Assembly: GCA_046538485.1 (NCBI GenBank)
Contig: JBKHIT010000091.1
Location: 1-13,515, forward strand
From: Candidatus Brocadiia bacterium
Lineage (GTDB): Bacteria > Planctomycetota > Brocadiia > SM23-32
DNA length: 13,515 nucleotides
Direction of reading: 5' to 3'
Shown here: piece after piece, positions 3,124-10,000 of the stretch
How the letters are laid out: each line of letters starts with the position of its first letter
Numbering within the stretch: the stretch's first letter is position 1
Notes under the pieces: model-generated
Databases searched by the model: none
Seen by the model: only the letters and a program-made list of their open reading frames with translations
What the model was told of the DNA's origin: nothing
Made by a program: the position numbers and the translations under genes

Positions 3124-3724
3124 GCCGTTTGCCGTTTAATCCGCGCAATCCGTGCAATCTGTGGACCAAAAAGTCGTTAGTGAACCGGTCACCGATCACC
3201 CGCCGTCTGCCGTTCGTCGTGTTCCTCCCGTGTCACTCAACTCAGAACTGTCGTTATTCGCCGGTCGTTATTCCAGCAACCAGCAACTAACAACCAGCAA
3301 CTTGCCGTCCCCTCTGCGTCTCAGCGCCTCCGCGGGAAAACCCGTCGTTACGCCGTTTAACCTGCCCGTCACTCTTCGCGCCCTTCGTGGTGAGAAGTCG
3401 TTGTTGGTTTTTGGTTACTGGTTTCTGGTTACTGGTGAACGGATAACGAACTGGAGCTGGTGACAGATCCCCGCGGAGGGTGGCTCAGCTTCCAAACTTC
3501 GTAGTTTCTAAACTTCGTAATTTCCCAGCTTCTTGCCGTTTCCCATCTTCCTATCTGCCCTCTGACCTCTGACCTCTGATCTCTGTCCTCTGTCCGTCCC
3601 GCCGTTGCTGGTGCGCCGTTATGCCGTAATGTCGTCGCTGACGTCTGCCCTCTGACCTCTGATCTCTGTCGTTTGCCGTCGCTGACGTCTGACCTCTGAC
3701 CTCTGATCTCTGTCGTCTGCCGTT
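3124..3724 (+). repeat. Mosaic short-tandem-repeat array A (GCCGTY-punctuated)
   Basis: Modules AATCCGYGC, ACCGATC, CCAGCAA, CTCTGCGY, CTTCGYG, TGGTTWC (inverted), AAACTTCGTA and TCTGACC. I count 12 GCCGT on + (3124, 3131, 3202, 3209, 3304, 3352, 3535, 3601, 3615, 3623, 3675, 3719) and none on -. Confidence 0.9.
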
Positions 3725-3729
3725 CGGAT

Positions 3730-3787
3730 TTGATAATGGGAATTACATCGGATACACTCATGTCAATTAATCACAGTATCTTATGAG
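3730..3787 (+). promoter_or_regulatory. Promoter and degenerate operator of abiE operon copy 1
   Basis: TTGATA (3730-3735), 17 nt, TACACT (3753-3758). CTCAT...ATGAG (3757-3787) aligns without gaps to the perfect inverted repeat upstream of copy 2. Confidence 0.55.
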
Positions 3788-3795
3788 ATAATGAC

Positions 3796-4443
3796 ATGTT
3801 TTTCCAGGAGCTGGTCCAGTATTTTGCCGACAGGCCCTTTTTTGAGCTGAAGGAACTGCGCGAGGTGGCGAGGACTTCGGAGAGTCAGCTGGCCAATCAA
3901 TTGTCGCAGTGGACGCAGCAGGGAAAAGTCCTCCGCCTGCGACGCGGCAAGTATCTGCTGAGGGTTCCCTACAGAAAATTTACCCCATCGACCTATTACG
4001 TTGCCAACTATCTCTATCGCCCCTCGTACGTCAGCCTTTCGACGGCCCTGCAGCACTACGGTCTTATCCCGGAAGCGGTGGCCATGACACAGTCTGTTAC
4101 CCCGCGTCACGGGCGGGAATGGACCACCGATCTGGGGCCGTTCTCCTACCGGTCGATCAAGCGCGAGCGGTTCTGGGGATACCGGGAGGAGGTTTTGGAC
4201 AGACTTCCGGCGCAAAACCGTTTTATGATCGCCCGGCCGGAGAAAGCACTCCTGGATCTGATCTACCTCCAAAAAGGAGAATGGACGCGCGAGCGGCTCA
4301 GAGAGATGCGGTTTCAGTCCATTGAAAGCCTGGATCCCGGGCGATTGCAGCAATATGCTGAACGATTCGACAGCCCCAAAGTCAGTCGCGCAACGGATCG
4401 TTTTTTAGAACTTTACTGGGGGGAGTTTACCGGTGAAAGATGA
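3796..4443 (+). CDS. abiEi: AbiEi-like type IV TA antitoxin / winged-helix regulator (copy 1)
   Basis: N-terminal wHTH (LSQWTQQGKVLRLRRGKYL), PSYVSLSTALQHYGLIPE and IARPEKALLDLIY motifs. Overlaps the downstream nucleotidyltransferase start. Confidence 0.88.
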   Translation: MFFQELVQYFADRPFFELKELREVARTSESQLANQLSQWTQQGKVLRLRRGKYLLRVPYRKFTPSTYYVANYLYRPSYVSLSTALQHYGLIPEAVAMTQSVTPRHGREWTTDLGPFSYRSIKRERFWGYREEVLDRLPAQNRFMIARPEKALLDLIYLQKGEWTRERLREMRFQSIESLDPGRLQQYAERFDSPKVSRATDRFLELYWGEFTGER

Positions 4444-5242
4444 AGCTTTACAGATCGTGGCCGAGGTGTCGACCGACCAGGGTAAACTGAATCATCTGCG
4501 CGAATACCTGCAAAACGCCATTCTGCGGGAGATGTTCGAACTCGACTGGCTGTCGGAACTGGTTTTTCACGGTGGCACCGCACTGCGCATGCTGCATGGG
4601 TTGCGGAGATTTTCGGAGGATCTGGATTTCCATTTTCGGGAGCCCGTCCGGGATTACTCGGTCGAATCGGAATTGAAGGACCTTCGTCGCCGGCTTGAGC
4701 TCAATGGTTATGACATCGAGTGTAGCCCGCTTTCCGGGGGGGCTGTGTGCAGCAGTTTTGTGAAATTCGGGGGCGGTTTGCTTTATGAGGCGGGTATCAG
4801 CCCACATGAAGACCAGAAGCTTCGGATAAAGCTGGAGATCGATACCAATCCGCCTGCCGGGTTTGGCACCGATACATCGCTGTTGGATCAGTATTTCCCC
4901 ATCGCCGTGACTCATCACGACAGGGAAACGTTTGTTGCCGGGAAATGTCACGCTATCTTGCAGCGGGAATGGTGCAAGGGCAGAGACCTGTTCGACCTGT
5001 TGTTTTATCTGACCCGGTGGGAGGGGGTTGAGCCCAATTTCGGGTATCTCCGAAACGCGCTGGAGCAGACAGGGTATGAGGGAAGCGCCATAGATGCGGG
5101 CAATTGGAAAGATAAAATCCGGACGAGAGTCGAGGAGCTTGACTGGTCGAGCGTTCAGGAGGACATCAGGCCGTTTTTGCTGGACCCGGCGGACATGAAA
5201 GCGTTCAGGAAAGAGTTTTTGGTCAGCAAGTTGACTGAATGA
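4433..5242 (+). CDS. abiEii: AbiEii/AbiGii nucleotidyltransferase toxin (copy 1, intact)
   Basis: FHGGTALRMLHGLRRFSEDLDF, IKLEID and K..AIL.R...KGRDLFDL motifs. GTG start overlaps the abiEi 3' end. Confidence 0.92.
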   Translation: MKDEALQIVAEVSTDQGKLNHLREYLQNAILREMFELDWLSELVFHGGTALRMLHGLRRFSEDLDFHFREPVRDYSVESELKDLRRRLELNGYDIECSPLSGGAVCSSFVKFGGGLLYEAGISPHEDQKLRIKLEIDTNPPAGFGTDTSLLDQYFPIAVTHHDRETFVAGKCHAILQREWCKGRDLFDLLFYLTRWEGVEPNFGYLRNALEQTGYEGSAIDAGNWKDKIRTRVEELDWSSVQEDIRPFLLDPADMKAFRKEFLVSKLTE

Positions 5243-5289
5243 TTGTTGAACAGACTAAAGAACTCGCCCGATTTTTATTTTGCGGCCGC

Positions 5290-8073: not shown

Positions 8074-8299
8074 AGCTTTACAGATTGTGGCCGACGTGCC
8101 GACCGACCAGGGTAAACTGAATCACCTGCGGGAATACCTGCAGCACGCCATTCTGCGTGAGATGTTTGAACTCGACTGGCTGTCGGAACTGGTTTTTCAC
8201 GGTGGCACCGCACTGCGAATGCTGCACGGGTTGCGGAGATTCTCGGAGGATCTGAAGGTTTTCAAAAAAGAGTTACTGGAGTCCGCACTGAGAGAATAA
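8063..8299 (+). pseudogene. abiEii: AbiEii toxin copy 2 with a 573-bp in-frame internal deletion (78 aa)
   Basis: The first 64 aa are nearly identical to copy 1 up to RFSEDL. The sequence then jumps to KVFKKELLESALRE, homologous to copy 1's last 14 aa KAFRKEFLVSKLTE. Confidence 0.88.
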
Positions 8300-8304
8300 A
8301 ACCT

Positions 8305-8606
8305 CACCGTCGTCCGCCCACCGTTTTCCGTTGTCCTCTTTGTCGCTAACTTCGTCGCGCACTTTGTCGTCCGTTCGCTGTTCGCTCTTGCCGTCCCGCC
8401 GTTAAAACTCGTAATCATAGTCGTGATCCCAGTCGTAATCGGTCGTTCGCTGTACGCCGTCGCTGGCCTCTGATCACTGATGACGGGTCACCGATCACCA
8501 GTCCTTTGCCGTCCCGCGTTATTCGTTTCTCGCATCTCGTTATTCGTTGCTCGTCGTTCGCTGTTGCCGTCCCCCGCGCCTCTGCGTCTCTGCGGGATAT
8601 TGCCGT
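8305..8606 (+). repeat. Mosaic repeat array D
   Basis: CTTYGTCG 12-mer, RTCGTR hexamer, ACCGATC, TCGTTAT and CTCTGCGT modules. 8352-8499 repeats at 9720-9855, and 8566-8598 is identical to 9902-9934. Confidence 0.9.
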
Positions 8607-8831
8607 GGATGTTTTCCGAGAAAAAAGTTGCCAGACGCGCTGGATAGGGTATAAAGAGTAATGTCGAAGGGATGGAAAAGAAGAAAGTTGAAAGAAGCAT
8701 AGAGAGACGAAACTTCTTTCAGCAGCTTCTGAGAGATCAGAAAACTTTTTCACCCCTTCGACTTTTCTATGTACCGGGCGGGCAGGCTCGCACCCGGCCA
8801 TCAAAATCGTAATCCTAGTCGTGATCCTAAT

Positions 8832-9596
8832 GTGCGCCGTGATAAGGCGCAGAGTTTCAGCAGGAATTAATACCTGCCCGGTAACTGTCGCTCCAGCCGG
8901 TAGCAATCGGAGCCTTTGTGGAGGTAACAAAGCGAAGGAAGCACTTCGATGTAAAGGGTCACTTATAGGTGATCCCGCGAGTTTGCAGGCCCAATTCGTT
9001 TGAACGCCGAGCAGGCCTCGAAACCGATTTTGCGGAAGCCGACCCATCATTAGGTTGGGGAAGGCTGCCAGCACTGGCGCAGCGAGCGACCAGCAAGCCA
9101 GTGGTTCCGCCGGGGTAGTGGCGAGGGCATGCAGACCCAGGAACTCTGTAGCAACACGGGATATCCAGCCCGGCAAAGGTGCTGATGAAGCGCTGCAACT
9201 GGCAGCCTGTGAGGGACGTGCCAGGTCAGGTTGGAAGTCGGAGAGGCCCATATTACCGCGGAAGCCGGGAAAACCGGTGGAGGGGAGGGGCCTTGGTCTG
9301 AAAGAGACATAGGAAGCGGCGTGTAAGGCAAGGAGACTGGCCATTTGGCCTATAAGCTCCTGAAGATGTCGAGAGGCTGCCGAGTATGTCAGGTATGCGT
9401 GGCAAAGGTGCGAGCCGATAGCCGAGCATTACCTTTGATAACAGAGAAAGCCGGATGCGGGAAATCCGCACGTCCGATTTGACGAGAGGAATGTGGAAAC
9501 GAAGTGCATGGTCAGGCTATTTAGGCACTCGCAGACGAAAGGGCGAGAACCAGATAAGCCGGGCCTAAACGCCACCGCGCCACATTTCTACTCTAC
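8832..9596 (+). mobile_element. ORF-less group II intron (765 nt; IIB-like, resembling bacterial class E/F)
   Basis: 5' end GTGCG. Domain V AAAGCCGGATGCGGGAAATCCGCACGTCCGATTT (9447-9480; AGC triad, GAAA loop, AC bulge). Long domain VI GAGAGGAATGTGG...CCACATTTCTACTCT with bulged A9590, ending ...CTCTAC. EBS1 ATTAGG (9049-9054, hairpin loop) is complementary to the 5' exon end CCTAAT (8826-8831). No RT ORF. Confidence 0.93.
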
Positions 9597-10000
9597 CGTA
9601 ATCGTCCGTTAAATCCTTTTAGCCGTCGCCGTACATCCATAAATCGGTGTAATCCGTGCAATCTGTGGACAGAAGCTTTTTGTCGTTGGCCGTTGCCCCC
9701 TGCCGCTTACCGTGGCGCCTCGTCGCGCACTTTGTCGGCCGTACGTCGTTCGCTCTTACCGTCCCGCCGTTAAAACTCGTAATCATAGTCGTCATCGGTC
9801 GTTCGCTGTACGCCGTCGCTGACCTCTGATCACCGATAACAGATCACCGATCACCCGCCGTTTATCGTCGCTGACTTCTGACCTCTGTAGCTCCGTCCCC
9901 CGCCGTCCCCCGCGCCTCTGCGTCTCTGCGGGATCCAGCCGTTTGGCCGTTGTGGTTTATCTCACAACTCACAACTCAAAACTCTCATTTGCCGTCCCCC
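9597..10000 (+). repeat. Mosaic repeat array E
   Basis: AATCCGTGCAATCTGTGGAC (9651-9670) is identical to 3147-3166. Also a copy of the array D block and TCTGACC, CTCTGCGT and CACAACT (9961-9985) modules, with GCCGTY punctuation. Confidence 0.9.

Follow-up and report, generated by a model that had tools for sequence, protein, structure and literature searches.

Long simple sequence repeats with units of 5-11 nt occur in prokaryotes, such as TAACTGA in Beggiatoaceae, cyanobacteria and Bacteroidetes (excerpts of PMC4679880) and GGGNATC in Xanthomonas and Nostoc (excerpts of PMC4692102), and heptamer repeats in bacteria have lacked a mechanism for decades (PMC4679880, PMC4692102). In Coxiella, Leptospira and Xanthomonas, intervening sequences (IVS) of the 23S rRNA that have an open reading frame (ORF) encode an S23p/four-helix-bundle protein, and their function and origin remain unclear (excerpts of PMC4990558). 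This work concerns five non-coding spacers in a 13,515-nt stretch of DNA from a Candidatus Brocadiia bacterium (the window), which is the whole 13.5-kb contig C79 of an assembly of 5.19 Mb (143 contigs, 88% complete, 53.8% GC). The spacers are polar mosaics of many short tandem arrays. With a probability of roughly 0.55, we read them as places where a dispersed family of short-period arrays, specific to this lineage and spread over the whole genome, has piled up locally and evolves by slippage and exchange. An earlier interpretation made from the DNA alone, here called the sequence-only reading, had proposed an integron-like system of cassette shuffling; its observation is confirmed, and its integron-like interpretation is partly supported.

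The mosaics share with the published simple repeats their tandem units of mostly 7 nt, strong intergenic excess, sporadic distribution and strand-specific placement between co-directional genes. Tandem units of 5-11 nt, an intergenic excess and a predominance of heptamers are all found in this genome, with 112 heptameric arrays among the 255 intergenic ones of period 6-12, against 20 heptameric arrays in coding DNA. Whereas the published repeats have one dominant unit per genome, dozens occur here, and TCTGACC, the commonest, accounts for only 21 of the 255 arrays. Also unlike the published repeats, more than a dozen units lie in one gap, in one polarity, joined by a GCCGT(Y) head and reordered between loci. 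Heptameric short tandemly repeated repetitive (STRR) sequences and small dispersed repeats have reportedly been described in cyanobacteria, by Mazel in 1990 and Elhai in 2008. Bacterial interspersed mosaic elements (BIMEs) are assembled from palindromic units whose orientation alternates, and they are linked to the transposase RAYT (REP-associated tyrosine transposase; REP, repetitive extragenic palindrome) in REP/REPIN-RAYT systems. Like the mosaics, BIMEs are intergenic, genome-dispersed and built from a small vocabulary of short motifs; the mosaics, however, are direct, non-palindromic and polar. A literature search, with subscription journals outside its scope, gave no description of such mosaics, nor of GxxExxY or four-helix-bundle genes with repeat arms.

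Anatomy of the spacers and the GCCGT head

The five spacers (2074 bp in total) and the dispersed elements in and beside them are listed here.

3124..3724, + strand: spacer A, polar mosaic (GCCGT 12 versus ACGGC 0; lag-7 identity 0.44)
5290..5945, + strand: spacer B, polar mosaic (GCCGT 9 versus ACGGC 0; Tandem Repeats Finder)
7246..7356, + strand: spacer C, short polar mosaic (GCCGT 3 versus ACGGC 0; direct-repeat families D4, D5 and D11)
8305..8606, + strand: spacer D, polar mosaic, paralogue of part of spacer E (alignment with E; lag-7 periodicity)
9597..10000, + strand: spacer E, polar mosaic (GCCGT 11 versus ACGGC 0; Tandem Repeats Finder)
3428..3463, + strand: left copy of a 36-nt dispersed module (inverted copy at 5823-5858; pair 94% complementary)
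3105..3122, + strand: GC-rich hairpin GAGCCC-CTTCAA-GGGCTC at the start of spacer A (read from the sequence)
8652..8773, + strand: ORF-less hairpin (29-nt arms, 79% complementary, 64-nt loop)

All modules named by the sequence-only reading are present in the sequence, and Tandem Repeats Finder recovers TCTGACC, ACCGATC, CCAGCAA, CTTAGAA/AGAACTT, TTCAAAG, CACAACT and AATCCGYGC, in 2-6 copies each. Also recovered, again in 2-6 copies, are GCGCCTCT, the 12-nt CTTTGTCG, the 16-nt AAACTTCGTA and RTCGTR. Spacer A is composed of AATCCGYGC, CCAGCAA, TGGTTTC, the 36-nt module (GGTGAACGGATAAC...), AAACTTCGTA and two TCTGACC modules, and spacer B of RTCGTR, TTCAAAG, two TCTGACC modules, ACCGATC, CTTAGAA and the inverted 36-nt module. 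AATC..GT and 12-nt CTTYGTCG units form spacer C, and spacer E comprises AATCCGTGC, CTTYGTCG, RTCGTR, TCTGACC, ACCGATC, GCGCCTCT and CACAACT. Tandem Repeats Finder calls cover 626 of the 2074 bp (~30%). Identity at lag 7 ranges from 0.35 to 0.44 for spacers A, B, D and E, compared with 0.23-0.26 in two coding controls, and it is still raised outside the called arrays (0.46 in D, 0.33 in A and 0.34 in E). Since a 7-nt period cannot hold a reading frame, the spacers are non-coding; a coding role is also ruled out by their internal ORFs, which belong to no family and have low coding scores.

The single polarity asserted by the sequence-only reading is borne out by the motif, with 41 GCCGT versus 0 ACGGC and 26 GTCGT versus 0 ACGAC over the five spacers (its count of 12 to 0 in spacer A was reproduced), but not by every module. 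TGGTTTC (3405-3436) reads as the CCAGCAA type in reverse complement, so the modules are not all one-directional, and the 36-nt module occurs inverted. Between the two inverted 36-nt copies lie the whole AbiE operon and some of spacers A and B. At least 15 further genomic copies of this module exist, in both orientations, and with two copies in the window their inverted orientation could be chance. The element to which the hairpin at 3105-3122 belongs is dispersed, and on contigs C71 and C87 it likewise stands in front of repeat tracts.

The genome as a whole contains 7436 GCCGT and 7494 ACGGC in 5.19 Mb (~1.4 per kb per strand), with equal densities in coding and non-coding DNA overall. Measured against this background, the spacers are enriched ~14-fold, on one strand only. 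The statement that modules are mostly bounded by GYCGT holds in the window, where the motif lies within 10 nt of the array edge in 15 of 16 arrays (12 upstream, 9 downstream). When arrays are placed at random within these spacers, the expected number is 8.5 +/- 2.0, and 15 was reached in 0.05% of 2000 placements. Genome-wide the association is weaker, as GYCGTY is found within 5 nt upstream of 36% of 95 CGT-free arrays versus 10% of random positions.

CGT-to-CGT spacing peaks at 7 and 8 nt, and GYCGT gaps are multiples of 7 in 8/20 cases in spacer A and 5/14 in spacer E. In register, TCTGACC arrays shade into CTGTCGT and CTGCCGT, and relatives carry pure arrays of GCCGT-type units, for example TTGCCGTTGCCG in 17.8 copies. 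A repeat unit of 7-8 nt has GCCGT as its core and keeps register with the heptamer arrays; the motif is therefore better regarded as a repeat unit than as a dedicated crossover site. GCCGT(Y) is also a shared head of 6-10 nt (GCCGTCGC...) before many arrays; a genome search for the pattern GCCGTYNCTGNNNTCTGNNNTCTG gave 17 hits, compared with 0 for a control pattern.

Related copies differ at this head. Spacers D and E, which have 81% mean column identity, are distinguished by one 12-nt unit indel and one module swap, in which a TCGTTAT module is replaced by a TCTGACC module between a left border GCCGTC/ATCGTC and a right border GCCGTC. In a five-copy composite, three of the five copies share sequence through GCCGTCGC and then enter different arrays; the left border of this composite is not at the motif. 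The idea of the motif as a crossover or insertion scar thus survives insofar as module swaps end there, but GCCGT is itself a repeat unit.

Spread and polarity across the genome and its relatives

About 47 tracts with a total length of 15.3 kb were collected genome-wide from motif clusters and a 5-mer scan trained on the spacers. Such tracts break short-read assemblies, as 21 of the 47 lie within 700 bp of a contig end. The same modules recur elsewhere in the genome in shuffled orders, and the tracts are not confined to defence loci, since they are also found in polysaccharide loci. Their defence-type neighbours are restriction-modification, AbiE, HepT/MNT, Fic, DUF4143 and BREX-like genes, and their other neighbours encode glycosyltransferases, sulfotransferases, Wzz, Poly_export, an ABC transporter and a NusG paralogue. 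After TCTGACC, the commonest units of the 255 intergenic arrays are CCAGCAA (11 arrays) and ACCGATC (10), among dozens of unit families. A second large array family, with the 9-nt unit AAGGGACNN, amounts to ~30 arrays genome-wide (sum of variants) and has no members in the window.

Of 63 pairs of adjacent arrays, 49 have their pyrimidine-rich sequence on the same strand. When both neighbouring genes of a tract could be called, 16 tracts ran in the same direction as the genes, 6 in the opposite direction and 6 were mixed, and on contig C48 four tracts are antisense to the flanking glycosyltransferase genes. For 200 polar arrays, the pyrimidine-rich strand between co-directional genes is the sense strand in 61 cases versus 32. 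The 16/6/6 split and the antisense tracts of C48 rule out gene direction as the rule behind the polarity and leave a weak link only. A replication-strand effect is likewise ruled out, GC skew at the 47 tracts being positive in 25 and negative in 22.

A function at the RNA level could nevertheless be imagined, in which the C-rich, unstructured tracts would serve as Rho loading (rut-like) sites that insulate adjacent transcription units or damp read-through towards acquired genes; we consider this rather improbable. The motif strand contains 32.6% C and 23.5% G, tract RNA folds no better than shuffled sequence (mean z +0.26), with worse folding in the four tracts of the window that were scanned (z +1.5 to +4.4), so composition and lack of structure would be compatible with the rut site of a Rho-dependent terminator. 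The tracts also stand after stop codons and before promoter-like sites, and the sense bias of 61 versus 32 points the same way. At C48:75288-77985, a NusG-paralogue gene heads a polysaccharide/ABC-transporter locus and is followed by a 580-bp sense mosaic, a layout that resembles the leaders under specialised NusG paralogues. On the other hand, a third of the tracts run antisense to adjacent genes, the G content is not low, and direct repeats as such entail a lack of structure.

The genome contains nine Y1_Tnp (HUH) genes, flanked by other, GC-rich hairpin repeats. Y1_Tnp gene counts run parallel to mosaic richness in five genomes (9, 15, 3, 1 and 0), but this gives a RAYT/HUH driver no support because the repeats flanking the genes differ from the mosaics. 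At C127:1-2700 and C7:1-1400, Y1 (HUH, IS200/RAYT-like) transposase genes lie within dense GC-rich REP-like hairpins that are unlike the mosaics.

Similar DNA was found in 12 of 31 relatives, this genome included, most strongly in G005 (same family, another genus) and G026 (another family of the class), in both of which TCTGACC with the GCCGT head recurs. A composite pattern was present in 2 of 32 genomes of the order, and a stricter form of it in none of 300 further genomes from the phylum, an absence that is weak evidence because repeats assemble poorly in metagenome-assembled genomes.

Tiny-gene cassettes and the origin of the arrays

The link drawn in the sequence-only reading between similar repeats and four-helix-bundle and GxxExxY genes proved real within the class. 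In a class sample of 41 genomes, 38 have four-helix-bundle genes and 31 have GxxExxY genes, and arrays lie within 250 bp of the gene at 30/30 and 25/30 loci, respectively. The inverted arms of these cassettes are significantly complementary at 22/28 four-helix-bundle and 25/30 GxxExxY loci, with a mostly purine-rich upstream arm. Their period goes with the gene family: tallied arrays have period 7 in 34/55 cases at four-helix-bundle loci, while those at GxxExxY loci have period 9-10 in 44/50 and period 7 in 0/50. Cassettes are mostly co-oriented with neighbouring genes (22/26 and 23/28; 21/30 and 23/29). Arm mismatches are G:U versus A:C in 58 versus 63 and 35 versus 56 cases; without an excess of G:U over A:C, selection of the arms as stems in sense RNA is not supported.

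This genome holds one GxxExxY gene (PDDEXK_3, TIGR04256; C3:6306-6656), inserted in a type I restriction operon, where it separates hsdR from hsdS. Within C3:5800-7300 it is flanked by ORF-less hairpin units of ~200 bp, three upstream and two downstream, whose arms are three CACGAAGNN / CTTCGTGNN nonamers. The only strong four-helix-bundle gene (PF05635, TIGR02436; C137:3295-3609) lies inside a resistance-nodulation-division (RND) efflux operon, and in C137:3170-3670 it is preceded by a short AGTTCTA-type array and followed by 12.6 copies of CTCAGAA/CTTAGAA that end 10 nt before the next ATG. Both genes thus sit in arrays, and both are co-oriented with adjacent mosaics.

The window contains units that match class cassette arms, namely CTTCGTG, CTCTGCG, the AATCYGTG nonamers, AATCCGYGC and CTTAGAA-type heptamers. 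Because these units are of the same kinds as the inverted arms, the mosaics belong to the repeat system of the cassettes. No match to a PF05635 or PF13366 gene (~120-130 codons) was found in the window, and its arrays are one-armed instead of complementary on both sides of a gene, the 36-nt pair being the only strong inverted one. The class cassettes resemble the IVS in that the same PF05635/TIGR02436 gene family lies between complementary terminal arms and the element behaves as a selfish insertion. Unlike the IVS, they stand between protein-coding genes and have arms made of tandem 7-nt arrays, with no G:U excess in the arm mismatches; the window spacers differ further, as they hold no gene and, with one exception, lack the second arm. 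A search for orthologous empty sites of two cassettes in four congeneric genomes matched only one flank, the species being too diverged. Each of four congeneric genomes contains tens of copies of a dispersed repeat of ~60 nt, such as the one at L071:2761-2823 (genome G022).

This kinship admits the reading that the spacers are a graveyard, where successive four-helix-bundle and GxxExxY cassettes entered the same junctions and lost their gene and one arm; we regard it as unlikely. Every module type of the window has a counterpart among cassette arms of the class (CTTCGTG, TCTCTGCG, AATCYGTG and AGTTCTA/CTTAGAA-like heptamers), ORF-less hairpins of the same design are present at C3 6.7-7.3 kb, C48 56.6 kb and window 8652-8773, and the co-orientation of cassettes with host genes fits the partial sense bias of the mosaics. 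However, no remnant of a cassette gene was detected in the spacers in four-helix-bundle/GxxExxY searches at E <= 0.001 or in Pfam searches at E <= 0.01, which also leaves the earlier notion of repeats as ends of emptied cassettes without its expected trace. Moreover, nearly all window arrays have one polarity and no complementary arm, whereas random decay of hairpins should leave both. For the hairpin at 8652-8773, an empty hairpin element and a small RNA are both conceivable. In window 8620-8780, a promoter-like TTGCCA...TATAAA precedes it, and its arms are first purine-rich, then pyrimidine-rich.

The arrays might instead be DNA or RNA binding sites for the four-helix-bundle and GxxExxY proteins acting in trans, with solitary arrays as extra sites. 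The arm period set by the gene family (7 nt versus 9-10 nt) would suit such a role, and the missing G:U excess leaves a DNA-level or an origin-by-duplication reading. The unit of the C137 gene, CTTAGAA/CTCAGAA, is also found solitary in the window (5769-5799) and on C48, C90 and C13. The commonest units, TCTGACC, CCAGCAA and ACCGATC, have no cognate gene in the 88%-complete assembly, and we judge binding sites in trans decidedly unlikely.

A bolder variant, to which we attach a low probability, takes the GCCGT(Y)-headed arrays as the substrate of a mobile-cassette system run by the four-helix-bundle and GxxExxY (PD-(D/E)XK nuclease-fold) proteins. These proteins would bind and cut arrays of their own period, cassettes would enter gene junctions, and leftover arrays would be landing pads where neighbouring genes get captured and shuffled; the AbiE operon inside the 94% complementary 36-nt inverted pair would be such a captured gene set. 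If this were true, the idea of cassette shuffling would be essentially sound, although both the site and the enzyme would be of a new kind, and 23S rRNA intervening sequences and the cyanobacterial heptamer repeats would be special cases.

Our preferred reading, lineage-specific dispersed arrays that pile up locally, starts from what is observed directly: the anatomy, periodicity, polarity and genome-wide spread of the tracts, their kinship with cassette arms, the one unit indel and the module switches at the head. Array units are mostly 7 nt, some 8-12 nt, and each spacer would be a long, degenerate 7-nt-periodic tract with patches recently homogenised into different units. GCCGT(T/C) would be both the core of the commonest unit and the shared 6-10-nt head before many arrays. 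Replication slippage would add and remove units, local duplication would be a second route of tract change, and short-homology exchange (ectopic gene conversion or template switching) among dispersed copies would reorder modules, with the shared head as the commonest switch point. This exchange, and any function, we infer from the sequences. Since all three processes preserve orientation, a tract and its neighbouring tracts would be polar without a link to transcription or replication. Accumulation would take place in long gaps between horizontally acquired genes, in defence islands and polysaccharide loci, with no dedicated recombinase. The defence genes would be bystanders, because other tracts have non-defence flanking genes and, in a control of AbiEii loci across the class, an array lies within 250 bp downstream at only 2 of 20 loci, one of which is the window.

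Several points weigh against this reading. Slippage and chance exchange alone leave the recurrence of the same units in G005 and G026 unexplained, and this recurrence points to an active spreading process or selection. The patchy distribution (2/32 and 0/300 genomes) does not favour it either. The relation of cassettes to arrays is not simple decay, because 225 of the 255 arrays are one-armed, having no inverted partner within 4 kb, and the cassettes are two-armed. The exchange mechanism is based on two within-genome comparisons only, and the scan for the 47 tracts was strand-specific and trained on the window, so that polarity inside tracts is partly by construction. Among the contigs scanned there was no relative close enough for a strain-level or syntenic comparison (48-51% identity at best).

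Genes between the spacers

The ORFs of the window (16 scanned) were compared with Pfam, and defence families were assigned with PADLOC. The genes and other elements between and around the spacers are given below.

208..2052, + strand: alpha-L-fucosidase gene, a core-type gene upstream of the island (Pfam Alpha_L_fucos, E 2.4e-86)
2257..2982, + strand: NYN-domain gene, PADLOC HEC-09-like (Pfam/PADLOC profile matches)
3730-3758: promoter-like site after spacer A (-35 hexamer begins 6 nt past the spacer end)
3796..5242, + strand: AbiEi (3796-4443) and AbiEii (4433-5242), a toxin-antitoxin/abortive-infection pair (PADLOC 2.7e-52 and 6.2e-63)
6029..6056, + strand: promoter-like TTGACA-16-TAAAAT (11/12 matches; ends 6 nt before the ATG at 6063)
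6063..7208, + strand: AAA_14/DUF4143 ATPase gene, PADLOC PDC-S01 (Pfam/PADLOC profile matches)
7426..8299, + strand: second AbiEi (7426-8073) and an internally deleted AbiEii (8063-8299, 78 aa; alignment to the full copy)
8832..9596 (approximate), + strand: ORF-less group II intron in an RTCGTR/AATC module (Rfam; ends set by other genomic copies)
10051..10470, + strand: DUF3427-like small gene (Pfam 2.4e-07)
10597..12216, + strand: HsdM, type I restriction-modification methylase (Pfam N6_Mtase 4.3e-109; PADLOC MTase_I)

A helix-turn-helix gene on the + strand follows HsdM and closes the gene order of the window. All genes that separate spacers are co-oriented and of toxin-antitoxin or defence type, as had been proposed and as the Pfam and PADLOC matches support. 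In the deleted AbiEii, residues 1-64 are 95% identical to the full copy (4433-5242) and the following 14 residues align to its C-terminus. The two AbiEi genes share only ~72% DNA identity, a difference which suggests that the two AbiE copies underwent gene conversion before the deletion.

Integrons are cassette arrays with attC sites and an IntI integrase. The window resembles them in its co-oriented accessory genes and repeated non-coding separators, and in the sequence-only reading a recombinase would move defence cassettes by crossover or insertion at GYCGTY, with the repeats as emptied cassette ends. GYCGTY at array borders, the module swap and several array switches bounded by GCCGTC, and the concentration of tracts in flexible islands would agree with this. 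In run X3, which represents a second strain, short metagenome contigs stop matching the window at 3753 and 7221, the edges of spacers A and C; these break points lie 25-30 nt off the nearest GYCGTY motif, which speaks against crossover there. Unlike an integron, the window has no IntI-type integrase among the scanned ORFs, in which no tyrosine or serine recombinase, HUH transposase or reverse transcriptase (RT) gene was found either. Attempts to find attC-like imperfect palindromes in the spacers gave none (0-2 short inverted pairs per spacer, none at gene boundaries), and the tracts do not exceed shuffled sequence in structure, as DNA or as RNA. The genes have promoter-like sites of their own, and the repeats are also found far from gene arrays, beside non-defence genes and antisense to genes. 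With arrays missing at AbiEii loci elsewhere, no cassette ORF remnant in the spacers and a motif that is itself a repeat unit, we hold an integron-like array to be distinctly improbable.

The claim that several genes have their own promoter right after the last junction holds at two of the five spacers, which adjoin promoter-like sites; over the whole region, however, four such sites were found against 5.2 expected from shuffles. As the -10-like hexamer ends 6 nt before the ATG, the mRNA of the DUF4143 ATPase may be leaderless. The promoter-like site after spacer A also bears on the proposal that the arrays are contingency tracts, in which unit number would toggle adjacent restriction, toxin-antitoxin or polysaccharide genes by phase variation. 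Restriction-modification and surface polysaccharide genes, both adjacent to tracts, are classical phase-variable classes (PMC4679880, Introduction), and spacer A ends 6 nt before the promoter-like -35 hexamer. We nonetheless find phase variation highly improbable, since the arrays lie outside promoter spacers and reading frames and many different arrays are stacked per gap. No unit-number variants, 7-nt indels among them, were listed for four metagenome runs on the window, with the limit that short Logan contigs break at repeats and drop rare variants.

The group II intron between spacers D and E was recognised by Rfam group-II-D1D4-4 at 8858-8999 (60.4 bits, gathering score 49) and by Intron_gpII at 9446-9596 (37.1 bits, below the gathering score of 40). 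It begins with GTGCG, which fits the group II 5' end GUGYG, and encodes no RT. Its two exons, when joined, match the uninterrupted module at 5368-5430. Partial or whole copies occur on contigs C65 (two), C113, C117, C55, C104 and C20, and the intron was rejected as maker of the mosaics because its flanks are non-mosaic at the other four readable 5' and the other four readable 3' junctions.

Sequencing runs with this locus are labelled as microbial mat, salt or hypersaline lake metagenomes. A search of the assembly for FtsZ_C gave no match. Logan contigs of run X1 are identical to the window over 4558-5639 and 5640-8197, and spacers B, C and part of A are covered; X1 is possibly the source sample of the window, in which case this comparison tests the assembler and not the data. 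An assembly artefact is ruled out, as the X1 contigs come from an independent assembler and show no differences, and the same design is found on many contigs and in other genomes. Contig depth is raised over 2707-3157, and most apparent joints in the Logan contigs of the four runs are cross-matches to other module copies. In metagenome contigs, the closest sequences to the DUF4143 ATPase have at most 48% identity, and a fucosidase query of genome contigs returned one locus with 51% identity.

Compared with the known heptamer repeats and IVS, this locus adds that many arrays can be stacked in one polarity through a common head motif, at which related copies switch modules. It further adds that such arrays match the types that bracket two widespread families of tiny genes, where the period of the arms depends on the family. 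Tracts of this kind in defence islands need not belong to the neighbouring defence systems.

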